From the sequence record SRR20825010_1540: a DNA stretch of 56,145 bases. One strand, written 5' to 3'. A model generated the notes under the pieces. That model was not told the origin of the DNA. It did not search any database and was given only the letters and a program-made list of their open reading frames with translations. Each line of letters opens with the position of its first letter. The stretch's first letter is position 1. Position numbers and translations under genes: made by a program. Below, piece after piece: positions 16,866 through 43,734 of this stretch.

Positions 16866-17876
16866 CTAATTGCCTATTTCCTCAATTTTTACAGGTCTTT
16901 TTTCCCGTAATGATTTTATGGCAGCTAGGCCAATTTGAAGTGACCGCAGTCCGTCGGTGCCATCTACCTCCATGGTATCTCCATTTTTTAGACTTGTTAC
17001 ATAACTGGCCATTTCGGATTTGTAAGCCGCCGCATACCTTTCCAAGAAGAAGTGCAACGGTAGCGATCCTTGTATTCCCTTGCCGGTATACAGTCGATGT
17101 GAATCCTCATAATTATTGTCTGCCTGGGCCATTCCCTTGGATCCGAACACCTCTATTCTTTGGTCATAGCCATAAGCGGCTTCCCTACTATTGTCTATAA
17201 CGGCCATGGTACCGTCCGTATAGGTCAAGGTAACCACAGCAGTATCTATATCCCCGGCCTCGCCTATAGCAGGATCCACAAGGACTGCTCCTTTGGCATA
17301 GACCTCTTCGATTTCCTTGCCCACTACAAATCTGGCCATATCAAAGTCGTGTATGGTCATATCCAAAAAGAGACCTCCGGATTGTTTAATATAGCTTACC
17401 GGTGGTGCTCCTGGATCCCGACTGGTAATTTTTACCAAGTGGGGCTGCCCTACGGCACCCTGCTTTACCAAATCATGAACTTTTCTAAACTCCTTATCGA
17501 ACCGGCGATTAAAACCCAACATCAATTTAATATTGGCTTCTTTTACCACTTTTAAAACCTCTACAACCCGTTGCATGGATAGATCCAAAGGTTTTTCGCA
17601 GAACACATGGATACCGGCTTTGGCCGCCATTTCAACATAGTCGGCATGGGTATCTGTCGGGGAGCAGATGACTACTGAATCGAAGGGGGCAACAACCAAT
17701 AGTTCATCATAAGTATTGACAATATGGGGTATCTTCCTTTCCCTCGCATATTCCCTACATTCTTCCATGGGATCCATTACGGCCACCACTTCCACCTGGT
17801 CCATTTGAAGCAGGTTTTCCAAATGGATCTTTCCTATCCTTCCCAACCCTGCTACCGCGAATTTAACTTTAGTCAT
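16866..17876 (-). CDS. iolG: myo-inositol 2-dehydrogenase
   Basis: GLGRIG, CEKP, GFNRRFD, SRDP, DMTIHDFD, YGYDQRIEVFGS; within the iol operon. Confidence 0.92.
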   Translation of the reverse strand: MTKVKFAVAGLGRIGKIHLENLLQMDQVEVVAVMDPMEECREYARERKIPHIVNTYDELLVVAPFDSVVICSPTDTHADYVEMAAKAGIHVFCEKPLDLSMQRVVEVLKVVKEANIKLMLGFNRRFDKEFRKVHDLVKQGAVGQPHLVKITSRDPGAPPVSYIKQSGGLFLDMTIHDFDMARFVVGKEIEEVYAKGAVLVDPAIGEAGDIDTAVVTLTYTDGTMAVIDNSREAAYGYDQRIEVFGSKGMAQADNNYEDSHRLYTGKGIQGSLPLHFFLERYAAAYKSEMASYVTSLKNGDTMEVDGTDGLRSLQIGLAAIKSLREKRPVKIEEIGN

Positions 17877-17919
17877 TGATGTATATTTCTTTAAAATTGT
17901 TTCGTAAATTTTGATTTGT

Positions 17920-18825
17920 CTATAACCCTAAGGATTTTATGTAGTCCCTATTGGCCTGTGCACATATTTTGGGATTTCCCATGCCCGGTAGAATGTCCTG
18001 CTCCACTACTATCCAATCGTTATATTTCATTTCTTCCAATATTTTTACAATGGATTGAAAATCTACCGCACCTTTCCCCAGTTCACAGAACACCCCCCTT
18101 TTAATGGCATCAAAATAATCCCCGTTGGCCTCCCGGGACGCTTTGGCCGCTTCAGGGCTATAATCCTTAAAATGCACATGCCATATTCTTTTGCCATACT
18201 TTTTCAGGGCCTTTACAGGATCACCTCCTCCAAAGGCATAATGTCCCATATCCAAACACAACCCCAACAATTCCGGATCGGTCAGGGCCATGAGTTTATC
18301 TATTTCTTCAGGGGTTTCTACATATCCTGCACAGTGATGATGAAATACCGTCCTAATACCGTAGGCATCCTTCACGGCCTTCGCTATCCTTTCCGCACCT
18401 GCGGCATATACTTTCCACTGTTCTTCCGAGAGCCCCATAGCAGGGGTAATTCTTCCCGCATTTTTGGTACGTTCGGGAACGGAACCATTGTCATCTGCCA
18501 AAACAATAAAAGAATTCCTGTAGCCGGCATTGTACATAAGTTCCGCTACTTTTAAGGCAGAAACAACACCTGCATCATGGTTGGCAGCTTTGGCCAATGC
18601 AACGGGCACAAAGGCGCCCAAAAGATCCAAATGCCTTTTTTCCAACTCTGCTTTTAACAGGCTTGGGGTGGTGGGCATATAGCCCCAGTCCCCCAATTCG
18701 GTGCCTATATATCCGGTTTCCTTTATTTCGTCCAGCACCTGTTCAAATCCTATCTCTTCGGATTTTTCTTCCAGGTCAAATTCCAAGGCGCCCCATGAGC
18801 ATGGAGCATTTGCGATTTTCATCAT
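17920..18825 (-). CDS. iolE: myo-inosose-2 dehydratase (TIM barrel)
   Basis: IANAPCSWG, FHHH, LCLDMGH, HVHFKD, FCELGKG, WIVVEQD. Confidence 0.85.
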   Translation of the reverse strand: MMKIANAPCSWGALEFDLEEKSEEIGFEQVLDEIKETGYIGTELGDWGYMPTTPSLLKAELEKRHLDLLGAFVPVALAKAANHDAGVVSALKVAELMYNAGYRNSFIVLADDNGSVPERTKNAGRITPAMGLSEEQWKVYAAGAERIAKAVKDAYGIRTVFHHHCAGYVETPEEIDKLMALTDPELLGLCLDMGHYAFGGGDPVKALKKYGKRIWHVHFKDYSPEAAKASREANGDYFDAIKRGVFCELGKGAVDFQSIVKILEEMKYNDWIVVEQDILPGMGNPKICAQANRDYIKSLGL

Positions 18826-18837: not shown

Positions 18838-20313
18838 TTAAAATTTTCTTGACCAAATATTCGGCCATCTCTCAATAATTACCTTGGTCTGCGTAAAGAA
18901 TTCTATAGCATGTTTGCCCTGACCGTGCAGGTCGCCAAAGAAGCTATCCTTCCAACCACTAAACGGGAATTGGGCCATGGGGGCCGCCACCCCTATATTG
19001 ATTCCGATATTTCCGGCATCGGCCTCATTTCTAAACCTTCTGGCATTGGCACCGCTACCGGTAAACAAACATGCCATATTTCCATAATTTCCACTATTGA
19101 CAAATTTTAGGGCATCATCTATATTTTTCATGGATATAAGACTCATTACCGGACCAAAAATCTCTGTTTTAATCAATTCCTTATCCAAGGCTACATCCTC
19201 CAAAATGGTAGGATTTAGGAAGTTTCCTTTCTCATAGCCTGAAATGGAAGCATTTCGGCCGTCCAAAAGCACTTTGGCGCCTTCATCTATTCCTTTCTGG
19301 ATCAGGCCTGTAATTCTTGCTTTACTTTCCGAAGTAATAACAGGCCCCATATTTACTTCCCTGTCCAGACCGTAACCGGTTGTTCGGGATTTAACGGTTT
19401 CATAAAGGGCATCCTTGATCTGTCTTTTTTGATCATCCACAGTGATTATTGTGGAAGCGGCCAAACATCTTTGGCCTGCACATCCATAAACGGAATCCGC
19501 TATGATTTTCGTGGACATTTCTATATCTGCATCCGGCAGGATCACTACTGGGTTCTTGGCACCCCCTTGGGCTTGCACCCTCTTACCATTGGCGGTACCC
19601 TTGGAATAAATATATCTGGCCACCGGGGTACTTCCCACAAAACTCACCGCTTTAATGGCAGGGTGTTCCAAAATGGCATCTACAGAATCCTTACCACCGT
19701 GCACTAGGCTAACAAGTCCCTTTGGGATATCCAATTGGTCCAAAAACTCAAAAATCTTCATCATGGTCATGGGCACCTTCTCGGATGGCTTCACCACAAA
19801 GGCGTTACCAGTAGCAATGGCATAGGGCAAGAACCAAAAAACGATCATACTGGGAAAGTTGAAAGGCGTTATACAGGCTGCCACCCCCAATGGTTGCCTG
19901 ATCATCATCTCGTCTATTCCCGTAGCAATATCCTCAATAACATCTCCAGCCATTAGCATGGGCGTTCCACATGCCACTTCAATATTTTCGATTGCCCTTT
20001 GGATTTCTCCAACAGACTCCCCATAAGTTTTCCCGCACTCCTTGGTAATAATTTCCGCAAGCACTTCGGTATTTTCCTCCATTAGGGATTTTAAGCGATA
20101 TAACACCTGAACCCGTTTTAGCACCGGAACCTTACTCCATTCCTGATATGCTTTGGATGCCGAAGCTACGGCCAAATCAACATCCTTTTGTGTGTCCTTA
20201 CCATAGGGAACCTTGGCCAAAACTTCCTGTGTGGCCGGATTTACAATGTCTATTGTTTCTTTGGATGTGCTCGGTGTCCAAGCTCCATCGATATAATTTT
20301 TTAGAGTTTCCAT
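18838..20313 (-). CDS. iolA: CoA-acylating (methyl)malonate-semialdehyde dehydrogenase
   Basis: ITPFNFP, SFVGSTPVA, GGAKN, GCAGQRCLA, GNIGINIGVAAP, FFGDLH. Confidence 0.9.
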   Translation of the reverse strand: METLKNYIDGAWTPSTSKETIDIVNPATQEVLAKVPYGKDTQKDVDLAVASASKAYQEWSKVPVLKRVQVLYRLKSLMEENTEVLAEIITKECGKTYGESVGEIQRAIENIEVACGTPMLMAGDVIEDIATGIDEMMIRQPLGVAACITPFNFPSMIVFWFLPYAIATGNAFVVKPSEKVPMTMMKIFEFLDQLDIPKGLVSLVHGGKDSVDAILEHPAIKAVSFVGSTPVARYIYSKGTANGKRVQAQGGAKNPVVILPDADIEMSTKIIADSVYGCAGQRCLAASTIITVDDQKRQIKDALYETVKSRTTGYGLDREVNMGPVITSESKARITGLIQKGIDEGAKVLLDGRNASISGYEKGNFLNPTILEDVALDKELIKTEIFGPVMSLISMKNIDDALKFVNSGNYGNMACLFTGSGANARRFRNEADAGNIGINIGVAAPMAQFPFSGWKDSFFGDLHGQGKHAIEFFTQTKVIIERWPNIWSRKF

Positions 20314-20348: not shown

Positions 20349-21947
20349 CTACTGGTTGTTCCAGAGCAATACATATATTAATATAGTAACGGCGCACAAA
20401 CCAATGGACATGGGAATGGTGTATTTCCAAGCTTTCAGGTTTACAGCGCCAACATCGGTAATTTCATACAAATTCCCGTTGGGATAGAAATAGGACACTG
20501 AATACATTATGGCCACATTCAGCAAGAATTCTATACCCCATAGATGTACAAAATGTATACCGTGGCTAGTGTAGCCCCAGGTCATGAAAATATAAAAACA
20601 GAGTCCAAATATTAGGGCAACTTTAGCCCCGGTTGCAGAGACTTTCTTCATAAAGAAGCCCGCCAATAGAATGGAGGCAATGGGAATAAAAAATATTCCG
20701 TTAAGCTCTTGCAGCAATTGATAGAGTCCGTCCGAGGCATTGGCTACCATTGGGGCCGCGAAAATGGCCACTACCGCCAAAATTGCGGAAGTGACTTTTC
20801 CAATCTTTACCAGTTTAACATCGCTGACATTTTTGGCAATATGCTTTTTATAAATGTCCATACTGAACAAGGTGGCCACCGAATTCAACACAGAATTAAA
20901 GGTACTCAATACCGCTCCCATGATTACGGCTGCAAAAAAGCCTATCAACCAAACGGGTAATACCTTTTTGACCAATTGAGGATAAACCGTGTCCTGTTGA
21001 TCAAAGTAGGTGTCCTGGAAATAATAGTAACATATTACCCCCGGAAGCACAATTATTAAGGGAATCAAGATCTTAAAAAGACCAGTTATCAAAAGTCCCT
21101 TTTGGGCCTCCTTCAAATTTTTCGCCCCCAAGGCCCTTTGGATAATCGTCTGGTTCATTCCCCAGAAATATAACTGATTAATAATCAGTCCTGTAAACAA
21201 CACTTCAAACGGCAACACCGAATCCCTTGCCCCTACCACATTAAATTTCTCGGGGGCATAATCATATACCTTCACCAAACCGTCCCAGATGTTGTTATCT
21301 CCTATGGCTAGTAGCGCCAATATTGGTATCAACAAACCTCCCAATAAAAGTCCAAATCCATTAATGGTATCGGAATAGGCCACAGCCTTTAATCCTCCAA
21401 AGATGGCATATATAGACCCTATGACCCCAATAATGACCACTGTAATCCATAATCCTTCAGATTTACTGACCCCCAGGGCCTCGGAAACCCCAAACAGGCT
21501 TTCAATGCCGATGGCGCCGGAATACAATACGATTGGCAGCAAGGTAACCACAAAAGAAAAGATGAGTATGGCGGCTACCATGGTCCTTGTCATCCCATCA
21601 AACCTACTTTCCAAAAACTGCGGTATGGTGGTGAGTCCCATTTTTAAATATTTGGGGACAAAGAAAATGGCCGCGATTACCAATGCTATCGAAGAGGTAA
21701 CTTCCCAGGCTATAACAATAAAACCATTTACATAGGAATTACCGTTCATCCCAATAAGGTGTTCCGAAGAAATGTTTGTCAATAACATGGAACCTGCAAT
21801 AACGATTCCGGTAAGACTTCTACCTCCCAAGAAATAGCCATCGGAGGATGTTAAGTTTGTTTTTCTAAGACTATACCATGTAAAAAAGGCAACCCCTCCC
21901 GTAAAAATCAGGAACGAAGTTAAAATGATGATGAGTTCGGAATTCAT
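20349..21947 (-). CDS. Sodium:solute symporter (SSS), probable myo-inositol importer
   Basis: GYFLGGRSL, SMLLTNISSEH and NQTIIQRALGAK SSS motifs; embedded in the iol operon. Confidence 0.85.
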   Translation of the reverse strand: MNSELIIILTSFLIFTGGVAFFTWYSLRKTNLTSSDGYFLGGRSLTGIVIAGSMLLTNISSEHLIGMNGNSYVNGFIVIAWEVTSSIALVIAAIFFVPKYLKMGLTTIPQFLESRFDGMTRTMVAAILIFSFVVTLLPIVLYSGAIGIESLFGVSEALGVSKSEGLWITVVIIGVIGSIYAIFGGLKAVAYSDTINGFGLLLGGLLIPILALLAIGDNNIWDGLVKVYDYAPEKFNVVGARDSVLPFEVLFTGLIINQLYFWGMNQTIIQRALGAKNLKEAQKGLLITGLFKILIPLIIVLPGVICYYYFQDTYFDQQDTVYPQLVKKVLPVWLIGFFAAVIMGAVLSTFNSVLNSVATLFSMDIYKKHIAKNVSDVKLVKIGKVTSAILAVVAIFAAPMVANASDGLYQLLQELNGIFFIPIASILLAGFFMKKVSATGAKVALIFGLCFYIFMTWGYTSHGIHFVHLWGIEFLLNVAIMYSVSYFYPNGNLYEITDVGAVNLKAWKYTIPMSIGLCAVTILIYVLLWNNQ

Positions 21948-21966: not shown

Positions 21967-23826
21967 CTATAAGTAATACTTCTGGGTCTTTTTATTTTCC
22001 AGAGAGGTCTTCAATGAATCCTTCACGGCATCCTTCTCGGATACTTCGGCTACTGCCACATCCCACCAGGCAAATCCGGGCACCGCTTTTTTACGGTCCA
22101 CCTCAATATAGATCACGGTAGTCTTGTCTATGGTTTTGGCTTTTTCAAGGGCCGAATTCAGTTCCTTTACATTGGCAGCTTTAATTACATGGGCACCCAT
22201 ACTCTCGGCATTGGCTGCATAATCTATGGGCAACTTTCCTCCGTCCAATTGGTCTGTCTCCTCATTTCTATATCGGTAGTATGTTCCAAAGCCCTCGCTT
22301 CCAAGGGAACTGGACAAACTTCCTATACTGGAATAACCATCATTGTTCAATAAAATAATGGTCATTTTCTGTTTTTCTTGGATCGATGTTACAATCTCTT
22401 GGGACATCATCAGGTAGCTTCCATCGCCCACCATAACATATATTTCGCTATCCGGGCGTGCCATTTTTGCCCCTAGGCCACCGGCAATCTCATAACCCAT
22501 ACAGGAATAACCGTATTCCAGATGGAAGCCTTTCGGGTTTCGGGTACGCCACAATTTATGTAGGTCTCCTGGCAGACTACCTGCTGCACAAAGCACAATA
22601 TCTTCAGGCTTGGAAAAGGAATTTACTGCTCCGATCACCTCTCCTTGAAAAGCGGGCACCTCATTCTTTTCCGCATAGATATCCTCCACAAACTGATCCC
22701 AGCTCTTATTAAAGTTTTCCACTTTTTTACGATAATCCCCATTCACTTCATAGTTCGCAAGCTCCTTGTCCAGGGTTTCCAAAATAGCCTTGGCATCCCC
22801 TACCAATGGCAGCGCCCCATGCTTAAAGGAATCGAATTCCGTAATATTTATATTGATAAAGCGCACCTTAGGATCTTGGAAAGCTGACTTGGAGATGGTA
22901 GTAAAATCGCTATATCTGGTACCTATCCCAATGACCAGATCGGCCTCCTTCGCAATTTCTATGGCCCCAGGGGTTCCGGTTACCCCTGCTGCTCCCAAGT
23001 TCTGAGGTTCGTTATAATCCAAAGAGCCTTTTCCTGCGAAACTTTCGGCAACGGGGATTCCCGTTCTATTGACCAATTTTTTCAATATTGCGGTTGCATC
23101 GCTATAAATGGTACCACCTCCCGCAATAATCATGGGTCTTTTACTGTCCTTTATCTGTTGGATTGCCCTGGACAAAAGTGTTTTATCGGGCATAGTCCTG
23201 CCTACATACCAAACGCGTTTCTGGAACATTTCCACAGGAAAATCATAGGCCTCCGCCTGTACATCCTGCGGAATGGATAGGGTGACCGTTCCTGTCTCTG
23301 CCTGCGATGTCAATACACGCATTACTTCTGGCAGGGAGGTAATCAATTGTTCGGGCCTGTTGATCCTGTCCCAATATTTGGAAACGGGTTTAAAGCAATC
23401 ATTGACAGATATATCCTGACTTAAATTGGATTCCAACTGCTGCAATACGGGGGCAACCTGTCTGGTAGCAAATATATCCCCTGGAATCAGAAGTACAGGA
23501 ATCCTGTTGATGGTGGCCGCAGCCGCTCCGGTAAGCATGTTGGTAGCTCCGGGGCCTATAGAGGATGTACAGACAAAAGTCTGCAACCTGTTCTTTACTC
23601 TGGCAAAGGCCGCGGCCGTATGTACCATACCCTGTTCGTTCCTGGCTACATAGTAGGGGAAATCCAGATTTTGGTGCAATGCCTGTCCTATTCCCGCTAC
23701 GTTCCCATGCCCTAAAATACCAAGACAACCGGCAAAAAATTTGTTCTGAACCCCATCCCGTTCTACGTATTGGTTCTTTAGATAGGCAATCGTGGCCTGT
23801 GCCACTGTAAGTTTTTTTGTTTTCAT
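21967..23826 (-). CDS. iolD: 3D-(3,5/4)-trihydroxycyclohexane-1,2-dione acylhydrolase (TPP-dependent)
   Basis: LTVAQA, GHGNVAG, RNEQGM, SSIGPGATN, EYGYSCMGYE, GDGSYLM, WWDV. Confidence 0.95.
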   Translation of the reverse strand: MKTKKLTVAQATIAYLKNQYVERDGVQNKFFAGCLGILGHGNVAGIGQALHQNLDFPYYVARNEQGMVHTAAAFARVKNRLQTFVCTSSIGPGATNMLTGAAAATINRIPVLLIPGDIFATRQVAPVLQQLESNLSQDISVNDCFKPVSKYWDRINRPEQLITSLPEVMRVLTSQAETGTVTLSIPQDVQAEAYDFPVEMFQKRVWYVGRTMPDKTLLSRAIQQIKDSKRPMIIAGGGTIYSDATAILKKLVNRTGIPVAESFAGKGSLDYNEPQNLGAAGVTGTPGAIEIAKEADLVIGIGTRYSDFTTISKSAFQDPKVRFININITEFDSFKHGALPLVGDAKAILETLDKELANYEVNGDYRKKVENFNKSWDQFVEDIYAEKNEVPAFQGEVIGAVNSFSKPEDIVLCAAGSLPGDLHKLWRTRNPKGFHLEYGYSCMGYEIAGGLGAKMARPDSEIYVMVGDGSYLMMSQEIVTSIQEKQKMTIILLNNDGYSSIGSLSSSLGSEGFGTYYRYRNEETDQLDGGKLPIDYAANAESMGAHVIKAANVKELNSALEKAKTIDKTTVIYIEVDRKKAVPGFAWWDVAVAEVSEKDAVKDSLKTSLENKKTQKYYL

Positions 23827-24851: not shown

Positions 24852-24857
24852 TTCCAA

Positions 24858-26686: not shown

Positions 26687-26778
26687 AAAAATTCAAATAT
26701 TAAAAGCGCCAAAGAATCAAACTACTATAAATAAACAATAAAAATTGCCCTTTGGAAAACAATTAATGCTAAAAAAAC

Positions 26779-26794
26779 ATGCAAAGGTTTGCAT
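26779..26794. promoter_or_regulatory. Putative LacI-family operator upstream of the iol operon
   Basis: Pseudo-palindrome ATGCAAAGGTTTGCAT, identical to 43817-43832. Confidence 0.75.
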
Positions 26795-26938
26795 TATGTG
26801 CAAAATTCCCTTATCAATTGATTTTGGAATACATTAAGAGGTCTCATATTTTTACCGAGCAATTACGGATAGAAAAACCTTATTGCCCAACTAATGTATA
26901 TTGCCCTTTAGTACAACAACATATAAACCAACTTTTAC

Positions 26939-33148: not shown

Positions 33149-33177
33149 AAAAAAAAGGCTAGACATACATCTAGCCT
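33149..33177 (-). terminator. Intrinsic terminator after the purple acid phosphatase gene
   Basis: Minus strand AGGCTAGA-tgtatg-TCTAGCCT followed by a T tract. Confidence 0.8.
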
Positions 33178-33205
33178 CTTGGTCACTGACATAACTAATT
33201 AAACT

Positions 33206-34198: not shown

Positions 34199-34230
34199 TG
34201 AATGACAAATTAAAATGGCAGATAATATGG

Positions 34231-36996
34231 TTAGAAATTAAACCTTATACCCAACCTACCCCAAGAACCATATCTTGTCCTAAAACTGGGCGTATTTTTG
34301 GTATTGTAAAATTCCCTTTCGTCCTCATCGGTTAGGTTAACCAACTCCAAAAAAGCCGTTAATTTATTTTTACTAAAGGTTTGGCTCATGGAAAAGTCCC
34401 ACTGATGTCTACTTTCCACATTGATTATATCCCCACCATCAAACTCATTGATATAAGACCCATTATAATTGAATGACAATCTTGCCTTAAACCCACCAAT
34501 ATTATAGGCGAGGGCAGCATTACCAATATTGTCCGCTTGCCCGGGCAAGTCTATCTCACTTAGATCTGCCCCTTGTGCAAAATTGGACACATTGGCTTCC
34601 GAAGCCGTGTGGGTATAATTTAAATACACTACAAGCCCCTTTAGAACGCCCGGCAAAAAGCTTAAATTTTGTTGATATCCAATTTCAAAACCCAATAGGG
34701 AGGCGTCATCACCATTAACGGATTGGGTAACCTCTACGTCCGGAATACCCCTAAAGGTCTGATCCGTAGTTTGCTGGTAAATAAAATCATTTAATTTTTT
34801 ATAAAAAACGCCTCCAGACAATAGTCCCAAAGTACCAAAATAGTGCTCCCCATAAATATCGAGATTCGTAGCCCTTACCGGTTTAAGATCCGGATTAAAA
34901 ATTGATGCCTCTTCCCCGTTAAAAGTTGCTCCCTGAACAAGATCTTGGAAATTAGGTCTGGAATAGGATTTAGTGATGGAGGCACGCAAAATATCGTTAT
35001 CGCTTATGTTGTATTTTAGATGAAACATAGGCAAGAGAAATCCATAGTCATTGGTCCCACTTACCGCTATTGCTTCCTCTGTATCCTCGTCCCATTGTCC
35101 TGAGGCATAATCAAAATTTGTTTTTTCATACCTTACCCCAGCCAGAAGCATAAGTCTGTTCAATTGTATTTTTCCCTGAACATAACCGGCAAACACATTT
35201 TCCGTTGCCTTGTATTCTTGTAAGGCCTTTTCCTCGGCCGCTTTAATAAAATCGGACTCGAAATCCCCTATATTATTGTTGAAATAGGTATTGAATTCAT
35301 TTCTATCAGTGAAAGGTCCTACCTCTTGATTGAATTCCCCATCCATAAAACTGGAATAAACATGGTTATCGGCAAAATCGCTCAAAAAAAGATCATCATC
35401 TCCTTCATACCCATAACTCTCAAATTTATCTACTATAAAACGTTTGTCCTTAAACCTAAGCTTGCCCCCCATTTTAAGCTCGCCTTGGTTTTCAGATATA
35501 TGCAACGGAAAAGCGGCATTTATTTTAGCGGTCGTATTATGGTCTTTTGCAGTTGTTACCTCATTTTCCCACTCATCCAATCCCAAAAGAGCTGCATTGC
35601 CTACCTGGGCATTTTGCCCATCATAGGTAAAACTATTGAGCTTTGGACTAAAACGATCGGAAATGTTCAGGCTCCATGTTACATCCTCTGCGTTTTCAAA
35701 CACAGATTTTTCGTTTGCCTCAGTTTTCTGAAATGCCTCTGAATGGGCTATTTCATAATCCAATATTACCTTGGCGCCAGAATAGTTTCCTCCAAGGTTG
35801 AAGCTGTATACTCCCTGATTCTCTGGACGATATTTGAGTTCCTTGGAAATTCCGTATTCCAAGACATCATCATCTTCCTCAGATTCCAATTTAAGCCTTC
35901 TTCTTTGCTCCACTTCCCTCAATTCACTGTATAATGTCCTGAAATAGATCTGACTTTTGTCACTGAATTTATAATCCAATGTTGCATTGGCCCCTATGCG
36001 CTTTCTTGAAACCTCATAACTGGTAATTTCCAACTCATCCAATCCTTCCGGATTGTCCTTATCCCAACCATCAAAAGTATATCTCTCCGAAAATTTTTCA
36101 CTAGGGGCATAACTACCCCCAACTATAAACCCAAACTTGTCATTATTGGTTCGTTTGCTCAGGGTAACATTCCCTTGAGCAGTGGTCTTCTCCGAAGAAT
36201 TGTTGTACTCGCCACCTAGGGAACCGGAAACCTCCAATTGTTTTTTATAGGCTGTTGGGGTTTTTAGGTTGACAGAACCTCCCACTGCATCCCCATCCAT
36301 ATCTGGAGTAATGGATTTTGTTATTTCAATTGACGCCAACTGATTGGAAGGTATGGCATCCAATGCCACAAATCGGGAATCCCCCTCAGGCGAAGGAATT
36401 TGTTCACCATTTATGCTAATGTTGGTGAATTGTGGAGCCAATCCACGCACTAATATAAAACGGCCATCACCTTCATCGCGCTGAAGGTTCACCCCTGTTA
36501 CCCTTTGAAGGGATTCCGCTGAATTCTGATCGGGAAATTTTCCCATTTGATCTGAAGAAACAACATTTTTCAGGTTATCGGCAGATTTTTGTTGGTTCAG
36601 TGCCTTTATTTGTCCATCCAAGGAGCCTGCCAAGATTATTTCGTTTAATTGGGTCGCTTCCATTTCGAGTTCAAAATTGACCACTTTGGTTTCCCCTGCA
36701 TTAATCTCCACGTTAATAGTCTTTGTCTTTTCACCGATATAACTCACTTCAATTTCCAAGTTACCGGCGTTAACGGCAAGGGAATATTCACCGTCAAAAT
36801 TCGTAGTTGTACCAGTATATGTACCTACAATTCTAATATTTGCACCGGGCAAAGGATTTTGTGAATCCAGATCCTTTACCGTGCCCCTAATTAACCCCTT
36901 GTTTTGAGACTGGGAATAAGCCAAATGGAAAGAACCAAACATACCGGTTAACAATAGAATTAAGAATATCCTAATATTAAAGTACTTAGATTTCAT
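34231..36996 (-). CDS. TonB-dependent receptor (non-SusC type, phytase-associated)
   Basis: Carboxypeptidase-like N-terminal domain, plug GKFPDQNSAESLQRVTGV..GDGRF..VRG, KSITPDMDGDAVGG, C-terminal FNF; ATG at 36996 gives a signal peptide (ORF opens at 37071). Confidence 0.9.
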   Translation of the reverse strand: MKSKYFNIRIFLILLLTGMFGSFHLAYSQSQNKGLIRGTVKDLDSQNPLPGANIRIVGTYTGTTTNFDGEYSLAVNAGNLEIEVSYIGEKTKTINVEINAGETKVVNFELEMEATQLNEIILAGSLDGQIKALNQQKSADNLKNVVSSDQMGKFPDQNSAESLQRVTGVNLQRDEGDGRFILVRGLAPQFTNISINGEQIPSPEGDSRFVALDAIPSNQLASIEITKSITPDMDGDAVGGSVNLKTPTAYKKQLEVSGSLGGEYNNSSEKTTAQGNVTLSKRTNNDKFGFIVGGSYAPSEKFSERYTFDGWDKDNPEGLDELEITSYEVSRKRIGANATLDYKFSDKSQIYFRTLYSELREVEQRRRLKLESEEDDDVLEYGISKELKYRPENQGVYSFNLGGNYSGAKVILDYEIAHSEAFQKTEANEKSVFENAEDVTWSLNISDRFSPKLNSFTYDGQNAQVGNAALLGLDEWENEVTTAKDHNTTAKINAAFPLHISENQGELKMGGKLRFKDKRFIVDKFESYGYEGDDDLFLSDFADNHVYSSFMDGEFNQEVGPFTDRNEFNTYFNNNIGDFESDFIKAAEEKALQEYKATENVFAGYVQGKIQLNRLMLLAGVRYEKTNFDYASGQWDEDTEEAIAVSGTNDYGFLLPMFHLKYNISDNDILRASITKSYSRPNFQDLVQGATFNGEEASIFNPDLKPVRATNLDIYGEHYFGTLGLLSGGVFYKKLNDFIYQQTTDQTFRGIPDVEVTQSVNGDDASLLGFEIGYQQNLSFLPGVLKGLVVYLNYTHTASEANVSNFAQGADLSEIDLPGQADNIGNAALAYNIGGFKARLSFNYNGSYINEFDGGDIINVESRHQWDFSMSQTFSKNKLTAFLELVNLTDEDEREFYNTKNTPSFRTRYGSWGRLGIRFNF

Positions 36997-37030
36997 TTTT
37001 ATTGATTTTAGTTGGTTGATATTTAGAATA

Positions 37031-37063
37031 TAAAAATAGGTTTCAATTCTGTTTAAAATCTGT
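37031..37063 (-). promoter_or_regulatory. Putative activator-dependent promoter: direct repeat plus -7 box
   Basis: Minus strand ACAGATT-ttaa-ACAGAAT-N7-TATTTTTA; same spacing as 31108-31140. Confidence 0.65.
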
Positions 37064-37687
37064 ACTGCCAATATTACTAAGTTATTGTTAAGTACATTTT
37101 GCCGATAGGTAATATTTGCGTAAACAAATTAGTTCAATAATGGGTCAAACTAGGGAGGGAGACAAATGAACTAGATCAGAGTAAAGATCTTTGTAAACTT
37201 CAAAAAATTTAACGGCTGTCTTTTCATCAAACCTTAAACGAATTTAAGTACATTCAACATAAAGATGAATTAACTTGCCATTATCCTGAATACAAGGCAA
37301 GAATTGCCCAATGCTCTACACAGCTGGTATACAAACTGCAGTGGTCCAATCGGATGCTTGATTTTGACGTTCCAATAACTGTTCCCTATTTCCAAGACAA
37401 AGAATTGCATTTTAAGATAGGTACAAATGCAGGAATCCCTAAAGCACTACCTTATCAATAAATTATTATTTAAAAGGTGAAAAATTCCAGTCTAGAAAGT
37501 TAATCTCGGTTTCCCTTATACATCCCTGACAGCATTATTTCTTGCCATAACAAAACAATTAACATAGGACTATAATTGCAGCAAGGCATAGGTTGTGTTT
37601 CAAACACACCAAAGGTGGGAACGTCCATATCATAACTTTACAATATATTTCCATACATTTTCAATGGTCCGTGAATTCCAATAAACC

Positions 37688-38707
37688 TTAACGCGAAGAA
37701 GCCCTTATAACCAGTTCTGGTTTAAAGACTTCCTTTCTAAATTCCAAAACGTTATTCTTGTTTTTTAAATGGCTCAATAAAATCCTGGCCGAGAGCATAC
37801 CCATACTATATACCGGTTGCCAAACGGTAGATAATGGGGGCGTCATAAAAGAAGAATGGGGTTCATCATCAAATCCTAAAACAGAGACGTCCTCCGGAAT
37901 TTTCAGACCCATTTTTTTGGCAATATGAATAGCAGAAATGGCGATTTTATCATTGTAGGCAAAAATGGCGTCCGGACAAATCTGGAGATCCAATAATTTT
38001 TTAGTGGCCTTTACAGCGTCTTTATGTGCAAACCCCGGAATATGAACAATATAATCACTATTTATGGGAACCTTATTTTTTTCAAGAGCATCCAAATATC
38101 CCTGTAGCCTTTGTTCTGTAGTACTAAGGTTTAAAGGCCCCCCAAGGTGCGCTATGTTTTTACAGCCCGTACCTATGAGGTACTCTACAGCCTGGAACGC
38201 CCCAAAATAATCATCTACCAACACTTTATCCGCCTCAAGCCCTGGACAGTCCCTATCAAAAACCACTACGGGTATACCACTCTTTTGAAGCCTACGGAAA
38301 TGATCAAAATCCTTGGTCTCGGATGAAGGTGCTACCAAGACCCCATCTATCTGGATCTTGGACAACCTCTTTACAATGGTCAACTCTTCCTCGTAGGATT
38401 CGTTGGACAAACAAATCATAATGTTGTATTCGGAATCAACTATTACATCCTGTATACCTGTGATTATTGCCGAAAAAAAGTGGCCCGTAATTTCTGGCAC
38501 GATCACCCCAATGGTATTGGACTTTTTCTGCAACAGGTTCAACGCTAAAAGATTGGGCTGATAATCCAATGCCTCCGCCAGCGCCTTTACAGCATCCTTG
38601 GTTTCTTTTTTTATAGCTGGATGATCGTTCAATGCCCTGGACACGGTTGAGGGGGCTATTTTGAGCTCTCGTGCTATGTCCTTAATGGTAACGCGCCCTT
38701 TCTTCAT
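37688..38707 (-). CDS. LacI family transcriptional regulator
   Basis: VTIKDIARELKIAPSTVSRALN HTH, YQPN hinge, IPEDVSVLGFDD, PPLSTV. Confidence 0.95.
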   Translation of the reverse strand: MKKGRVTIKDIARELKIAPSTVSRALNDHPAIKKETKDAVKALAEALDYQPNLLALNLLQKKSNTIGVIVPEITGHFFSAIITGIQDVIVDSEYNIMICLSNESYEEELTIVKRLSKIQIDGVLVAPSSETKDFDHFRRLQKSGIPVVVFDRDCPGLEADKVLVDDYFGAFQAVEYLIGTGCKNIAHLGGPLNLSTTEQRLQGYLDALEKNKVPINSDYIVHIPGFAHKDAVKATKKLLDLQICPDAIFAYNDKIAISAIHIAKKMGLKIPEDVSVLGFDDEPHSSFMTPPLSTVWQPVYSMGMLSARILLSHLKNKNNVLEFRKEVFKPELVIRASSR

Positions 38708-38945: not shown

Positions 38946-38975
38946 TTAGGGCAGACAATATATTGTCTGCCCTAA
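38946..38975 (-). terminator. Perfect 30-bp palindrome, probable terminator after susD
   Basis: TTAGGGCAGACAATA|TATTGTCTGCCCTAA, 26 nt past the susD stop, followed by TCTTTT on the minus strand. Confidence 0.75.
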
Positions 38976-39001: not shown

Positions 39002-40744
39002 CTAATAACCTGGGTTCTGTTGAAGAAAACCGTCAATACCTGAAGCTGCATCCACTGCACTCTGTGGTATAGGAAATACCCTTTTGTTTACATCGGAATC
39101 TGTCTTTTCAGTCCAGGAATCCTCGTATTTGCCAAATCGTATTTGATCCCCGCGTCTAAAGCCTTCCCAGTACAATTCAAAACCTCGCTCACGAAACATT
39201 ATATCCAAATCAATGGATGTCAAAGAGGCCGGAGTCTGATCTGGGCGCGATGTTCTTGAGGACCGCACAAAGTTCACATCGGTTAAGGCCCCTGAAGCAT
39301 CATTCTTTCTCAATTTTGCTTCTGCCCGCATTAGATATATTTCAGCCAATCTCATCATTACAAGATCTATACTACTAAAATTATTGGCATTTGGAGAAGT
39401 ACGGCTAAATTGATACTTGGAGACACGATATCCTGTATTGTGCAACGACCCTTCATTGGTGAAGTTTATTTCTTCGGTATGATTTACATATCCCACATCC
39501 CTATCAGGACCATTTCCTTTAATTTGTTTAACGGGATATATCCTTACCCCATCATCACATGTATAAAACGAACCCCCGGAATCCTTTCTGGGACCCCATT
39601 GTACACCACGTAAGATACCTCTGTTCATTTCGTAGGTAGCAACATCCGCACAATAATAATGATCTTCATCATTCAAAGGGGAGAGCCCAGTTAAATCCAT
39701 CAACTCTGCAGGAATCTGCTGGTTTTGCTGATAGAATCTGGCATCTGCATCTGCAGGATCCACATCCTCATAGGCATCTACCCAAGTCTGATAAAAATCT
39801 GAAGTTATAGCTGGACCATCTGTACCATCAGAACTGGGATATTCCAATCTTCCCCATACGGATCCTGCAATAGACCAATAAGACCAACGGCTTTCCTCGT
39901 TTCTCAAAACCCCACGTTGATCCAAGGCAAATATGATCTCGGAGTTACTATTGTTATCGTCATTGAAAAGATCAAAATATTCTGGCGATAGTGAAAAGTC
40001 TCCTGAATTGATAATGTTATTTGTGTACTCTATAACCTTATCCATATCCGCATCCGTAAAATTTGGTGTGCCATATGGGTCCCTATATACAGCTGCATTT
40101 AGGTGCAACCTTGCCAAAAAGCCCCAAACTGCGGCCTGGGTCATCCTTCCCGGTCCTTTATCTGTGTTAATAACGTCTACCACGGACAACAATTCATTTT
40201 GTATATAATCTATGGCGTCCTGGGTCCTTAACACTTCTGAAAGTTGATTGGAGGCTTCCTTTTTTAATACCATTCCCCAACTATCCAGCATCAACAAATT
40301 TAGGTAGGCCCTAAGTGCCTTCATTTCATACAAGGCTCCCGCCGCTTCCGCATTGCCTTCATCTGCCAATGGAGTCAACACCTCAATGGCCGCCAATGTT
40401 CTTGAAATATTGGTAGTAAGTTCGTTCCAGCTACTGGAAATCAAATCATTACTCGGGGTGTAGGTGTGCGAATGTGTGGCTAAAAATTTACCCCCATCAA
40501 ACCAGTCGGTTCCTCCCCTGTAAGGAAGAATGGCCTCATCCGAGGCAATCAGCTGAAGTCCATAGTAATTGGTATGCCTCCAGGTCCATGAAACGTAGCC
40601 GTAGGCAGGTGCAATTGCTCCGCTAATCACTTCGGCCTGGGCACCCGTTAGGGTTTCATCGAATAATTCCTCTTTTAGGTCCGTACAGTTCCAGTTCAAC
40701 AAGGAACAATACACCAATATTGTAATTATGAGTTTATTTTTCAT
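39002..40744 (-). CDS. susD: SusD/RagB family lipoprotein
   Basis: N-terminal Cys lipoprotein signal (NWNC), ASDEAILPYRGGTDW, MRLAEIYLMRAEA, ERGFELYWEG.RR.DQIRFG, QQNPGY; ATG at 40744 (ORF opens at 40753). Confidence 0.92.
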   Translation of the reverse strand: MKNKLIITILVYCSLLNWNCTDLKEELFDETLTGAQAEVISGAIAPAYGYVSWTWRHTNYYGLQLIASDEAILPYRGGTDWFDGGKFLATHSHTYTPSNDLISSSWNELTTNISRTLAAIEVLTPLADEGNAEAAGALYEMKALRAYLNLLMLDSWGMVLKKEASNQLSEVLRTQDAIDYIQNELLSVVDVINTDKGPGRMTQAAVWGFLARLHLNAAVYRDPYGTPNFTDADMDKVIEYTNNIINSGDFSLSPEYFDLFNDDNNSNSEIIFALDQRGVLRNEESRWSYWSIAGSVWGRLEYPSSDGTDGPAITSDFYQTWVDAYEDVDPADADARFYQQNQQIPAELMDLTGLSPLNDEDHYYCADVATYEMNRGILRGVQWGPRKDSGGSFYTCDDGVRIYPVKQIKGNGPDRDVGYVNHTEEINFTNEGSLHNTGYRVSKYQFSRTSPNANNFSSIDLVMMRLAEIYLMRAEAKLRKNDASGALTDVNFVRSSRTSRPDQTPASLTSIDLDIMFRERGFELYWEGFRRGDQIRFGKYEDSWTEKTDSDVNKRVFPIPQSAVDAASGIDGFLQQNPGY

Positions 40745-40761
40745 TACTAGCATTTTTTTTA

Positions 40762-43734
40762 TTAGAATGATACGTTTAAGCCAAAAAGCAATGTTCTTGG
40801 AGAAGGATATGTAAACCGGTCTATCCCAAAAGTTTGAATCCCGTCTATGGTGCTTCCCGTGTTGATCTCCGGATCAAACCCGGAATAATCTGTAACCACA
40901 AATAAGTTCTGGCCTGTTAGAGTAAATCTGACATTACTTATCAAATCTCCTAAACCAAGATTTTGAGGTTTTAGGTTATACCCTAGGGTAGCATTGTTTA
41001 AGCGAAGGAAACTACCATCCTCTAAATAGCGGGTAGACACTTCATTGGAGTTGCTGTTGTCCTCGTTCGGAAATTCTACTGCAAAATCTGTCGTATTCAG
41101 GTTTCTGCTCAACTGTCCTTTTGAAAATAGGGACATAGCCGTATGGTTAAAGATTTTATTCCCAGAAACTCCATTAAAGTTAAGACCTAAATCAAAATCT
41201 TTATAATTGAATTTAAAATAAAACGCATATATGATATCCGGCAGGGCACTTCCGACAACGACACGGTCATTATCCAAAATTTCACCGTCACCATTGACGT
41301 CCCTAAATTGATTACGGCCATCAGCACCTATACCGATAAATTCCTTCATATAGAATGCACCTACAGGTTCGTTGTTCAGATACCCATTAATAGTGGCACC
41401 AGTTTGCCCGGCACCTTGGGCCGCACCAGTAGTAATCACCTCAAATTGGGAGTTTTCAACTGTATTTTCAGTAAAACTCATATTACCTCCCAAATTAAAC
41501 ATGAAGTCCTCCGAGAGCATTATTCTATAATCCAGGGCCACTTCAACACCCGAATTTATAATTTCCATATCCGGAATATTGGTCCAGATTTTTGAAGTGG
41601 GCTGAATGGGATCTATCCTATTGGCAAGTAGTACCACATCACTGGTAACTTTGTGAAAATAGTCCAAGGTACCCGTCAATTTACTATTGAAGAGACCAAA
41701 ATCCAATCCAATATTGGTCTGTGTGGAAACTTCCCATTTAAGATCAGGATTTGCCGTTCGTGCAGGAACAGTACCAAATGGATAATCATCTATAGTACTT
41801 GCATTTGGATCAAGAGGATAAGTATCATTGTCCGCCTTACTGTCTATATAACTTGCCAAACTTACTTTATTATCTATCCCTTCCTGGTTACCTGTTTGTC
41901 CCCAACTAGCACGAAGTTTTAGATTATTGATAACGTCGCTATCGGCCAATATGTCTTCCTTACTAATATTCCAGCCCAATGCTACGGATGGAAAATATCC
42001 ATATTTGTTGTTGGCGCCAAATTTTGAAGAACCATCGGCACGCATGGTGGCTGTAAGCAGATATTTGTCCGCATAGCCATAATTAAGCCTACCAAAGAAA
42101 GATTGAAGTTCATTCTTAAATGCATAACTGTTCAGGCTCGTAGGATTCTCTTGGCTACTGATCTGATCCTGAAATTTAGGATCAATATCATTGGTTGCGA
42201 AGCCCCTAAGATCGAAATGTTTTTGCTGAACATATATTTCCTGGTAGGAATGTCCCGCTAACAAGGTAAAATTATGAACGCCCTCATTATAGGTATAGGT
42301 CAATGTATTCTCTACCAAGGAATTCCTATTATTGGTGTAGTAAGAACCAAGTGTACCTTCTACCAAGCTTTCCAGTATAGGATACGGATTTGTCTGTACA
42401 TCCCTATCCGTTGCCGAATAATCTACCCCAAGATTGGCCCTATAGGTCAACCCTTTAAAAATTTCTAAAGAAGGGGCAATATTTGCCAAGATACGGTTGC
42501 TGTTGGAAACATCACTATAAATTTGGTTACGGACCGCGGGATTCAATCTATCATCGAACAAAGTGGGTTCCCCGTTGGTATAAAGTGGAATTGTAGGGTT
42601 CAATTGCAGCATATCCACTGTCATGTCACCAATATTAGGCCTATCATTTACTGTTCTTGAAGCTGTCAGATTCAAATCAACATTAAAACGTCCGTCCAAT
42701 GCTTTCTGGGTCAAATTTACCCTTCCTGAATATCTTTTTAAGGAACTGGTATTAAAAATCCCTTTTTGATCATCGACCCCAGTGGATACGTAATAGGAAA
42801 ATTTATCTGCGGCCCCGCCACTCATAGCAAAGTTAACATTCTTGGAAATGGCCGTTCTAGTCAGTTCATCTTGCCAATCCGTATTAGCACCTCCATCCAA
42901 TAAAACACCTCCTACAGCAGGAACCTGTTGCCTAAATTCATCGGCGCTAAAGACATCCATTTTATTGGCCAAAGTGGCCATTGCAGTAGAAATGGATAAA
43001 TTCATTTCAGATTTGCCGTCCCTTCCTTTTTTGGTAGTGATAACAATAACCCCATTGGCGGCGCGCGCTCCATAAATGGCTGCTGCGGAAGCATCCTTCA
43101 ACACATCCATCGAGGCTATATCCTGAGGATTGATAAAATTTAAGGGATTGGAAGCAACCCCAGTACCACTATTGTCTATAACAAAACCATCAATGACAAA
43201 TAGCGGTGTAGTTCCTGATCGGAGACTCCCCAATCCACGAATAATAATGTTTTGGGATGCACCTGGCTCCCCACTTACCGAAGTTACATTGACACCCGAC
43301 ACTTTACCTTGCAAAAGCTGACCGGGATTGGCCACTACTCCCTTATTAAAATCTTCACTTTTAACGGAAGCGATAGATCCGGTTACATCAGATTTCTTTT
43401 GAACGCCGTAACCTACTACTACCACCTCGTCCAATAATGACGAGTCTTCCTGCAAGACAGCACTCACATTAGTTTGACCGTTGAGCGGATACTCCTTGGT
43501 AGCATAGCCTAAAAAGGATATCGCGAGAATCGCGCTTTCATCCGATACTTGTATGGTGAAATTACCATCAAAATCGGTCGTAGTTCCATTGGAAGTTCCT
43601 TTTTCCAGCACGGTTGCACCTGGCAAGGGAACATTCTGTTCATCGGACACCGTACCGGTAACAGTGGTCTGTGCCCATGATGTCATGGATGTGCCTATCA
43701 CAAAGACAAACATCAAAAATTTCAGTTTCTTCAT
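40762..43734 (-). CDS. susC: SusC/RagA TonB-dependent transporter
   Basis: VVVGYGVQKKSDVTGS, LKDASAAAIYGARAANGV, RADGSSKF, NPDLKWE, YSGFDPE, terminal Phe. Confidence 0.95.
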   Translation of the reverse strand: MKKLKFLMFVFVIGTSMTSWAQTTVTGTVSDEQNVPLPGATVLEKGTSNGTTTDFDGNFTIQVSDESAILAISFLGYATKEYPLNGQTNVSAVLQEDSSLLDEVVVVGYGVQKKSDVTGSIASVKSEDFNKGVVANPGQLLQGKVSGVNVTSVSGEPGASQNIIIRGLGSLRSGTTPLFVIDGFVIDNSGTGVASNPLNFINPQDIASMDVLKDASAAAIYGARAANGVIVITTKKGRDGKSEMNLSISTAMATLANKMDVFSADEFRQQVPAVGGVLLDGGANTDWQDELTRTAISKNVNFAMSGGAADKFSYYVSTGVDDQKGIFNTSSLKRYSGRVNLTQKALDGRFNVDLNLTASRTVNDRPNIGDMTVDMLQLNPTIPLYTNGEPTLFDDRLNPAVRNQIYSDVSNSNRILANIAPSLEIFKGLTYRANLGVDYSATDRDVQTNPYPILESLVEGTLGSYYTNNRNSLVENTLTYTYNEGVHNFTLLAGHSYQEIYVQQKHFDLRGFATNDIDPKFQDQISSQENPTSLNSYAFKNELQSFFGRLNYGYADKYLLTATMRADGSSKFGANNKYGYFPSVALGWNISKEDILADSDVINNLKLRASWGQTGNQEGIDNKVSLASYIDSKADNDTYPLDPNASTIDDYPFGTVPARTANPDLKWEVSTQTNIGLDFGLFNSKLTGTLDYFHKVTSDVVLLANRIDPIQPTSKIWTNIPDMEIINSGVEVALDYRIMLSEDFMFNLGGNMSFTENTVENSQFEVITTGAAQGAGQTGATINGYLNNEPVGAFYMKEFIGIGADGRNQFRDVNGDGEILDNDRVVVGSALPDIIYAFYFKFNYKDFDLGLNFNGVSGNKIFNHTAMSLFSKGQLSRNLNTTDFAVEFPNEDNSNSNEVSTRYLEDGSFLRLNNATLGYNLKPQNLGLGDLISNVRFTLTGQNLFVVTDYSGFDPEINTGSTIDGIQTFGIDRFTYPSPRTLLFGLNVSF

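Follow-up and report, generated by a model that had tools for sequence, protein, structure and literature searches.

In this study we focus on a locus for the dephosphorylation of phytate and the catabolism of inositol, carried on a 56,145-nucleotide stretch of DNA from sequence record SRR20825010_1540 (the window; all coordinates are positions in it, and labels in L and G denote loci and genomes, respectively). Between positions 16866 and 43734, the list of open reading frames (ORFs) of the window gives 18 back-to-back, non-overlapping genes, all on the minus strand. From the upstream end, these encode a SusC-like transporter, a SusD-like lipoprotein, a LacI-family regulator, a TonB-dependent receptor, a purple acid phosphatase (PAP), a response regulator, a histidine kinase, a PepSY-like protein, a beta-propeller phytase (BPP), the phosphatase PafA, an IolJ-like aldolase, IolB, IolC, IolD, a sodium:solute symporter (SSS), IolA, an IolE-like protein and IolG. 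A first-pass annotation had taken them for one integrated system built like a polysaccharide utilization locus (PUL). This view did not survive comparison with related genomes. Instead, the locus is probably a composite, in which an 11-kb phytate cassette (26694..37694, minus strand) has been inserted into an older SusC-SusD-LacI-iolJBCD-SSS-iolAEG locus, and its working is most likely best explained by two modules that share one metabolite, myo-inositol. The annotation had also counted 17 consecutive minus-strand genes; their continuity and strand hold, and the gene it missed is probably the small PepSY-like one (30672..31094). Because the gene order is found again in three other Arenibacter assemblies, with protein identities of 84-100%, it is not due to chance. 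The window itself belongs to Arenibacter, its proteins being 96-100% identical to those of A. troitsensis DSM 19835.

The composite nature of the locus is evident from the cassette-free congeners, the sharp breaks in homology and the lower GC content of the cassette. Two Arenibacter genomes without a PF02333 (phytase) match, G042 and G333, carry an outer-membrane protein gene followed by SusC-SusD-LacI-iolJBCD-SSS-iolAEG (L058 and L063), which is the window locus minus all genes between LacI and iolJ. In blastn, homology to L063/L058 stops at window positions 26693/26700 and restarts at 37695. The cassette has a GC content of 0.375, against 0.44 in the iol block and 0.412 in the LacI-SusCD part, and the GC at third codon positions of its genes is 0.31-0.40 against 0.41-0.48. 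Among 401 Flavobacteriaceae genomes, 24 bear iolD, and the 20 kb around iolD were examined in 20 of these. The older arrangement also extends to other genera: cassette-free SusCD-LacI-iol loci were found in three further genomes (L057, L061 and L069), and LacI lies directly 5' of iolJ in 10 of the 20. As to the PUL character of the locus, an adjacent SusC/SusD pair is present (TIGR04056, 779 bits, and PF07980), and between 16866 and 43734 there are no glycan-degrading carbohydrate-active enzymes (CAZymes). The first-pass annotation was thus right that the locus holds no CAZyme, but a GH92 alpha-mannosidase-family gene on the plus strand at 249..2543 (Pfam PF07971 and PF17678) bears the same operator as SusC and iolJ.

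The cassette itself recurs well beyond Arenibacter. A total of 30 loci with a phytase were found, and 14 of them have the arrangement response regulator-histidine kinase-PepSY-tandem BPP; these come from Arenibacter, Maribacter, Jejuia, Flagellimonas and three uncultured lineages. Where the loci cover the place, the TonB receptor stands in front in 13/13 and PafA behind in 12/12, and PAP is present in 7/13; the PepSY-like gene lies between the histidine kinase and BPP in all 14. The cassette can evidently exist as a stand-alone unit, with strong terminators after PafA closing it in two Maribacter loci (L011 and L030). It is directly followed by iolJ in four Arenibacter loci, in Jejuia (L005) and in a metagenome-assembled genome (MAG) labelled Flammeovirgaceae (L029). 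The iolD genes of these loci fall into three distinct clades (bootstrap support of 100% for each), and their gene orders differ. In L007, from a Maribacter MAG, the gene for myo-inositol oxygenase (MIOX) comes next instead, together with an SSS gene whose product is 72% identical to that of the window, which makes four structurally different juxtapositions: three with iolD clades and one with MIOX and SSS. The distance from the PafA stop to the next start is 0 bp in L005 and 2 bp in L007, and both arrangements read as operon fusions under the regulatory box of the cassette (see below). An entry enzyme of inositol catabolism is encoded in 13 of the 14 cassette assemblies (10 with iolD, adjacent in six and elsewhere or on other contigs in four, and three with MIOX), against a base rate for iolD or MIOX of 81/401 in the family sample; the 14th, with neither, is a MAG of 1.6 Mb in which the contig breaks off behind PafA.

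Since the same cassette adjoins three iolD clades and once MIOX and SSS, in two cases as an operon fusion, the linkage between phytate dephosphorylation and inositol catabolism, already proposed from the window alone, looks selected rather than accidental, and the co-occurrence in 13/14 assemblies agrees with this. The pairing of cassette and inositol genes would have arisen several times independently. In Maribacter antarcticus, about 33 nt past the PafA stop resemble the beginning of the Jejuia iolJ reading frame and then reach a stop (L004:13729-13765 against L005:13677-13712); this stretch, a short and weak match, may be a relic of a PafA-iolJ fusion. In other phyla, phytase genes of Ignavibacteria, KSB1 and Sulfomarinibacter MAGs (L015, L016 and L024) are neighbored by genes for a LacI regulator, a TonB receptor and one or two iolG-like GFO/IDH/MocA oxidoreductases (33-50% identity).

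The division into a phosphatase arm under two-component control and a carbon arm under LacI control, as first proposed, fared better than the idea of a single system: the locus appears to hold two separate regulons, each with its own conserved cis-element. The LacI-family regulator (37688..38707, minus strand; PF00356, PF13377 and PF00532, the last of Peripla_BP type) combines a helix-turn-helix with a periplasmic-binding-protein-like effector domain, and a palindrome before its operons is kept across species. Perfect 16-bp copies lie at 26779..26794, 92 bp 5' of the iolJ ATG, and at 43817..43832, 83 bp 5' of the SusC ATG, and a third copy with one mismatch lies at 157..172, 77 bp 5' of the GH92 start. 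When up to three mismatches are allowed, the window has six strand-matches (both strands) against 1.05 expected. The palindrome is found 89-98 bp 5' of iolJ in 14 loci of several genera and 5' of SusC at 84 bp in L058 and L063 and at 112 bp in L072; in other loci, it also precedes LacI itself. It is rare, with 3-5 sites per genome in five genomes. Its shape is typical of LacI-family operators and, by adjacency, it is the predicted operator of the neighboring LacI. The GH92 copy is perfect at the equivalent place in the congener G042 (L081, with GH92 downstream), and the GH92 gene, 16 kb away, probably belongs to the LacI regulon as an outlier. Each of the Arenibacter genomes G333, G042 and G001 has one extra palindrome site (L075, L076 and L087, respectively) between the genes for a TPR protein and a glyoxalase-family protein.

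The second element is a direct repeat with a 7-nt unit and an 11-bp period. Its first copy (37045..37062, minus strand, an exact match) lies 5' of the TonB receptor gene and its second (31122..31139, minus strand, one mismatch) between the histidine kinase stop and the PepSY start. In the cassette loci covering the respective place, it is kept before the TonB receptor in 13/13 and before PepSY in 14/14, with 20-36 bp between box and PepSY across the latter. An 11-bp period fits binding by the OmpR family, to which the response regulator of the cassette belongs, and the latter is the putative binder of the box. Exact sites number one per genome in G001, G404 and G405 and two in G406; cassette-free G042 has one that is unrelated. 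The possibility of a global Pho box was considered and rejected, because the box is practically confined to the cassette; in addition, the response regulator scores 139 bits with the Bacteroidetes PhoB model, below the cut-off of 270, and is the weakest of the four PhoB-like matches in G001. Two loci have a third box (L029:400-417 and L013:425-442). Some 33 bp separate it from an operon, just 5' of the TonB receptor, that encodes a 3-hydroxyisobutyrate-dehydrogenase-like protein, an IolE-like TIM barrel protein and an SSF transporter.

Terminator-like sites further divide the locus. A hairpin of 12 pairs with a T run follows the PAP gene (33153..33180, minus strand) and is also seen in L002, L003, L004 and L007, and a strong one of 13 pairs follows SusD (38946..38975, minus strand); terminator scans revealed none between PafA and iolJ. 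A sigma-70 promoter scan gave 81 sites against 66.7 expected and was uninformative; the phylum also uses another type of promoter. Hints of expression come from RNA libraries that may contain DNA, and they are given little weight. The four sequencing runs consist of contigs only and carry no transcript ends, strands or levels, and uncovered parts are uninformative. In two seawater metatranscriptomes of one study, contigs fall on iolB/iolJ (25000-26263); in one marine metatranscriptome, with a depth of 2-5, they hit the genes for PafA and PAP as well as the spacer from PafA to iolJ and the junction of BPP and PepSY.

The proteins of the cassette were classified, as were all others, by Pfam domain matches and by NCBIfam/CDD-type models scored in bits against curated cut-offs. 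The phytase (28616..30667, minus strand) carries two PF02333 stretches (E = 3e-82), with halves that are 56% identical to each other and each full length, aligning to residues 25-310 of the Bacillus phytase structures 3AMR/1H6L (E = 5e-35 for the C-terminal and 1e-24 for the N-terminal half). Several acidic positions of the Bacillus phytase alignment are retained in both halves. The assignment as a tandem BPP was therefore sound. Phytase frames of tandem length occur in only two of the 78 phytase-bearing genomes of the family sample. The designation of PAP (33206..34198, minus strand; Metallophos domain) is likewise confirmed. This small enzyme of the ACP5/TRAP type matches the PDB structures 1WAR, 2BQ8, 1QFC, 1QHW, 7OV8 and 1UTE (human, rat and pig TRAP/ACP5 among them) over 280 residues with E values from 2e-39 to 4.5e-37. 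The metal ligands of PAPs reside in a set of five motifs, and all five (GDWG, GDNFY, GNHD, GHHP and GHEH) are present. PafA (26939..28579, minus strand) exceeds the NF042991 equivalog cut-off with 726.8 bits against 650. The cassette genomes G001, G405 and G410 have two PafA genes and the cassette-free Arenibacter genomes G042 and G333 have one, so that the copy in the cassette appears to be a dedicated paralogue, the second of its kind, under the two-component box.

Sequence signals point to export: predicted lipoprotein signals are found on the phytase (lipobox LISAC), PAP, the PepSY-like protein and SusD, and PafA has an ordinary signal peptide. The PepSY-like lipoprotein (PF11396, with the lipobox Cys; minus strand) opens the PepSY-BPP-PafA unit. 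The TonB-dependent receptor, of the Xanthomonas/Caulobacter subfamily (TIGR01782, 515 bits against 310), is listed as an ORF from 34231 to 37071 on the minus strand. Its likely start is the ATG at 36999, since the signal peptide comes after M25 and the box at 37045-37062 falls inside the longer ORF. With PAP, phytase and PafA adjoining it, this outer-membrane transporter is co-localized with phosphatases. The response regulator (32390..33067, minus strand; PF00072 and PF00486) is of the OmpR type, and the sensor histidine kinase (31149..32393, minus strand; PF00512 and PF02518) belongs to the PorY-family subfamily NF052314 (390 bits against 350).

The older part of the locus consists of the transport genes and the inositol pathway. 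The SusC-like TonB-dependent transporter (40762..43734, minus strand) scores 779 bits with TIGR04056 against a cut-off of 368, and the SusD-like lipoprotein (39002..40753, minus strand; PF07980) has acidic residues after the lipobox Cys. In Bacillus subtilis, the enzymes IolG, E, D, B, C, J and A turn inositol into dihydroxyacetone phosphate, acetyl-CoA and CO2. The first-pass annotation had found this whole route in the window, and five of its steps stand above their curated cut-offs: inositol 2-dehydrogenase IolG (16866..17876; TIGR04380, 438 bits against 355), IolD (21967..23826; TIGR04377, 895 against 715), 5-deoxy-glucuronate isomerase IolB (24858..25733; TIGR04378, 294 against 205), 5-dehydro-2-deoxygluconokinase IolC (23838..24857; TIGR04382, 382 against 300) and the CoA-acylating (methyl)malonate-semialdehyde dehydrogenase IolA (18838..20313; TIGR01722, 542 against 448), all on the minus strand. 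The other two are placed partly by position and context. The putative inosose dehydratase, an IolE-like protein with a xylose-isomerase-like TIM barrel (17920..18825, minus strand; PF01261), matches TIGR04379 with E = 1.6e-63 at 215 bits, below the cut-off of 290, and the class II aldolase in the iolJ position (25745..26686, minus strand; PF01116) is above the cut-off for the generic ketose-bisphosphate aldolase subfamily only (TIGR00167, 235 bits against 216). Both genes keep their places in at least 14 loci, and the aldolase opens the iol operon in 14. The SSS symporter (20349..21947, minus strand; PRK10484, 705 bits against 401), which lies within the iol cluster in 18 of the 20 iolD-bearing relatives, is the presumed inner-membrane inositol importer.

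From these parts, a mechanism can be proposed. What the sequences show directly is the gene content, where the cassette begins and ends, the two cis-elements and the recurrent juxtaposition; substrates, localization of the proteins, the signal for the kinase and all binding events are predictions. Module A would comprise the LacI-controlled SusC-SusD, LacI itself and iolJ-B-C-D-SSS-iolA-E-G, with the palindrome before SusC, iolJ and GH92. Module B would be the cassette between the LacI stop and the iolJ operator, made up of the units TonB receptor-PAP and response regulator-histidine kinase-PepSY-BPP-PafA. The kinase would sense a periplasmic cue, upon which the two boxed promoters would be switched on. 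Phytate, or products of its partial dephosphorylation, would then be imported by the TonB receptor. Phytases of Bacillus remove alternate phosphates down to approximately InsP3 (inositol trisphosphate), and the tandem enzyme, presumably Ca-dependent, would likewise strip alternate phosphates to about this stage. PAP and the extra phosphate-insensitive PafA would complete the dephosphorylation in the periplasm. The need for the latter would follow from stoichiometry, because six phosphates released per inositol are expected to shut down ordinary phosphate-repressed phosphatases. The released phosphate would serve phosphorus nutrition, and the freed inositol would enter through SSS, lift the LacI repression of module A and be burnt by the iol enzymes.

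The role of the SusCD pair in this scheme deserves separate consideration. It had been assigned to phytate uptake, an assignment that finds no confirmation: the pair is present with the same operator in phytase-free relatives, so that it appears to belong to the LacI arm and not to the phytate arm. SusD orthologues with 70-95% identity occur in cassette-free loci. In other genera, the orthologous SusCD pair sits with several GH92 genes, a GH125 gene and a GH28-like gene. In five other genera, a fusion of GDPD_2 with alkaline phosphatase (PhoA) and an NPP-type phosphodiesterase (CHB_HEX_C and PA14 domains) adjoin the LacI operator (L090 in G318, L091 in G280, L092 in G282, L072/L096 in G009 and L095 in G194); the genes of this wider regulon stand either next to the palindrome or, within one locus, between genes flanked by operators. 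These phosphodiesterase neighbors hint at an inositol-phosphodiester or a glycolipid head group as the substrate.

These neighbors lead to the alternative that survives best, namely that the carbon arm is a PUL for the head groups of inositol-containing glycoconjugates, in which SusCD would import mannosyl-inositol(-phosphate) compounds and not free inositol. It would meet the phytate cassette only since both routes end in inositol. This reading complements the two-module explanation and does not compete with it. We regard it as a serious possibility that falls somewhat short of even odds. The GH92, GH125, GH28-like, GDPD_2-alkaline phosphatase and NPP-PA14 genes by the operator in other genera speak for it, as does the operator that the window retains before GH92, the only one of these enzymes that Arenibacter keeps under the operator. 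Against it, the substrate is predicted from gene neighbors only, and the Arenibacter orthologue of GDPD-PhoA (64% identity) is encoded elsewhere, with no operator found nearby. A mannosylated inositol-phosphate compound as the ancestral substrate of the LacI regulon is accordingly offered as a hypothesis only. The idea that Arenibacter had lost GDPD-PhoA and that the cassette took its place was also considered and found unsupported, as the 64%-identical orthologue is present elsewhere in G001, G042 and G333.

Several observations weigh against the two-module explanation and the insertion on which it builds. Neither integrase nor transposase families are present among the 18 genes in the family scan, and when terminal repeats or target-site duplications were sought around 26694-37694, only the internal BPP duplication (spacing of 999 nt) and weak short matches came up. 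The cassette as a marked mobile element was therefore rejected, and transfer is suggested solely by the shift in composition and the presence/absence polymorphism. In the iolD tree, cassette-bearing Arenibacter (the window, L002, L003 and L006) and cassette-free ones (L058 and L063) are intermixed with weak support (87-92%), a pattern suggestive of a recent event of gain, loss or recombination at this single site in the genus; the cassette may possibly have been lost rather than gained within Arenibacter. The action of PafA and PAP on phytate or inositol phosphates is a prediction, and PAPs usually favor acid pH. No copy of the LacI palindrome was found within the cassette, and since the modules keep separate control elements, their joint induction would need the actual release of inositol. 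Furthermore, for ordinary phytases of the Flavobacteriaceae there is no link with inositol catabolism. In the family sample (78 genomes with phytase, 24 with iolD and 59 with MIOX), iolD or MIOX is present in 20/78 BPP-positive and 61/323 BPP-negative genomes (odds ratio 1.48, p = 0.21, uncorrected for kinship), and phytase and iolD/MIOX are adjacent in only one of the 78 (G001). The first-pass annotation had itself named unlinked blocks in relatives as the finding that would tell against a joint system, and here the evidence is divided: in L011 and L030, sequence extends well past PafA with no adjoining inositol-catabolic gene, and in L004 and L010, no inositol gene appears before the contigs end 2.5-3 kb past PafA, but the blocks are linked in the six iolJ loci and in L007. 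All four of the genomes with L011, L030, L004 and L010 have iolD or MIOX elsewhere, and linkage is unreadable at L008, L009 and L013.

These same four loci, together with the general lack of association between phytases and iolD/MIOX, form the basis of a second alternative: that the cassette is purely phosphorus-scavenging, with its position at the iol genes incidental (for example at a permissive intergenic site) and phytate inositol of no significance as a carbon source. The separate control elements of the two modules would fit this, as would the published precedent of a phytase locus that is induced by phosphate depletion (PMC8115612). However, incidental placement does not readily account for four different juxtapositions, two of them with 0-2 bp spacing to PafA, or for an inositol entry enzyme in 13/14 cassette assemblies against 81/401 in the family. 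Two features of its control also speak against this alternative: the box is not a genome-wide Pho box, and the response regulator is below the PhoB cut-off. Moreover, the extra PafA is of the phosphate-insensitive kind, and the third box in L029 and L013 precedes an operon with the SSF transporter and the IolE-like TIM barrel. We therefore consider this alternative unlikely. More improbable still is a single integrated phytate PUL of 18 co-evolved genes, with SusCD and the TonB receptor both importing inositol hexakisphosphate (InsP6): the contiguity of the genes on one strand, the lack of a terminator-like site in the PafA-iolJ interval and a metatranscriptome contig spanning the spacer (26703-26954; weak evidence at a depth of 2-3, with DNA carry-over possible) agree with it, but SusCD-LacI-iol occurs with the same operator in phytase-free G042 and G333, orthologous SusCD pairs accompany GH92/GH125 and phosphodiesterases in other genera, and the cassette differs from its host locus in composition, comes with a receptor, regulator, box and terminators of its own, and is also found alone.

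The regions on either side of the locus are unrelated to it. To the left (2650-7431 and 7665-16664) lies a group of genes for an amidotransferase, an iron alcohol dehydrogenase, an aldehyde dehydrogenase and a glutamine-synthetase-like protein, of gamma-glutamyl polyamine type by family names, with an amino-acid permease gene next to it; these are adjoined by a set of ECF sigma, FecR and SusCD (with STN domain) genes. To the right (45453-55835) lies a plus-strand PUL of the sialic-acid type, with SusCD, a DHDPS/NanA-family lyase, GH20, an N-acylglucosamine 2-epimerase and a BNR sialidase-like protein.

Inositol phosphates make up a sizeable share of coastal dissolved organic phosphorus (PMC12406696), yet little is known about which organisms use them or whether the carbon ring is exploited as well. 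The locus described here offers a concrete and testable genetic model, with defined cassette boundaries, two cis-elements and a natural cassette-plus/minus pair of congeners. It would explain in functional terms why the phosphate-insensitive PafA is present twice, and the combination of tandem phytase, PepSY-like gene, response regulator/histidine kinase pair and box could mark users of phytate carbon in metagenomes. From the wider LacI regulon, an as yet unexplored way of degrading inositol glycolipid head groups suggests itself; if this is true, the host locus would be a PUL for a class of head groups that ends in a cyclitol pathway. Taking both arms together, we tentatively propose a portable phytate-to-inositol cassette with a private two-component circuit and box, fused to inositol genes at least four times in marine Bacteroidota so that phytate would serve as carbon and phosphorus source, next to a new class of PUL in which a LacI regulon (SusCD, GH92/GH125, GDPD-PhoA, NPP-PA14 and iol) harvests mannosylated inositol-phosphate head groups. 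Within this joint proposal, which we hold to be possible more than probable, glycosyl-inositol-phosphoceramides, glycosylphosphatidylinositol (GPI) anchors and phosphatidylinositol mannosides are conceivable, if speculative, head-group candidates.

The individual parts are already known to some extent: pairs of phytase and TonB receptor and the PUS loci (PMC8115612), PafA (PMC8812569) and the rare iol clusters of Flavobacteriaceae (PMC9430895). Searches of the open literature (subscription journals lying outside it) returned no work joining "iolG" and "SusD", and those of the open literature without supplements none joining "beta-propeller phytase", "PafA" and "TonB-dependent". Papers naming both phytase and iolD include none on such a locus, as judged by title or abstract, and one species description names inositol, GH92 and SusD together in a flavobacterial context. 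PMC12406696 refers neither to TonB, SusC or iol nor to gene clusters, and PMC2597717 names phytase only in a reference. The survey of iol clusters does not mention TonB, and the passages of it that were examined do not tie phytase genes to the clusters (PMC9430895); "phytate" occurs once in PMC8812569, in the title of a reference.

The closest known relatives of the host locus are the iol clusters and the SusCD-type PULs. The window has the same seven enzyme steps as iolABCDEFGHIJ of B. subtilis. It differs from canonical iol clusters in its LacI-type regulator with a defined palindrome, in the SSS symporter as transporter, in the SusCD pair within the regulon and in the phytate cassette before the operon. 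The inositol transporters of model organisms are MFS or ABC systems. The core order B-C-D-E is shared with the Flavobacteria clusters surveyed by Weber and Fuchs (2022), where iol clusters were reported from 2% of Flavobacteriaceae species (PMC9430895), compared with 24/401 genomes in the present sample. As in the SusCD-type PULs of Bacteroidota, there is an adjacent SusC/SusD pair and a local regulator, and orthologous loci have GH92, GH125 and GH28-like genes. Unlike in these PULs, there is no CAZyme between 16866 and 43734, and the downstream pathway is for a cyclitol, not a sugar. The phytase resembles the dual-domain BPPs, such as PhyH of Bacillus, in having two tandem BPP domains per polypeptide. 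However, the N-terminal domain of such enzymes is reportedly incomplete, unlike the two full-length halves found here, and the genomic setting differs as well.

For the cassette, the nearest precedents are the F. johnsoniae phytase Fjoh_1367 and the TonB-dependent transporter Fjoh_1368, which are co-induced on phosphate depletion, and the PUS loci described in the same work (Lidbury et al., 2021; PMC8115612). In the former, as in the window, a BPP adjoins a TonB-dependent transporter in a Flavobacteriaceae genome, and like the PUS, the cassette co-localizes outer-membrane transporters with periplasmic phosphatases in place of CAZymes. PhoA1 of PUSII, moreover, has the GDPD_2-PhoA architecture that is found in other genera within the LacI regulon (PMC8115612). 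The window differs from the F. johnsoniae pair in that its phytase is a two-domain tandem. Unlike the PUS as portrayed in the passages of that paper, the cassette has its own response regulator and histidine kinase with a private cis-element, and not evident PhoBR control. PafA, a phosphate-insensitive phosphatase, has been proposed to let Bacteroidetes use organophosphates for carbon and phosphorus, and it is in F. johnsoniae that the insensitivity of the enzyme to phosphate was reported (Lidbury et al., 2022; PMC8812569). The cassette protein is above the equivalog cut-off for this family, and the same logic of joint carbon and phosphorus use is proposed for it. In F. johnsoniae, PafA is a constitutive orphan gene (PMC8812569), whereas the cassette carries an extra PafA, together with PAP, that is a second copy placed under the two-component box. 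Finally, in contrast to the PUS (PMC8115612), the cassette is physically joined to the inositol catabolic pathway.

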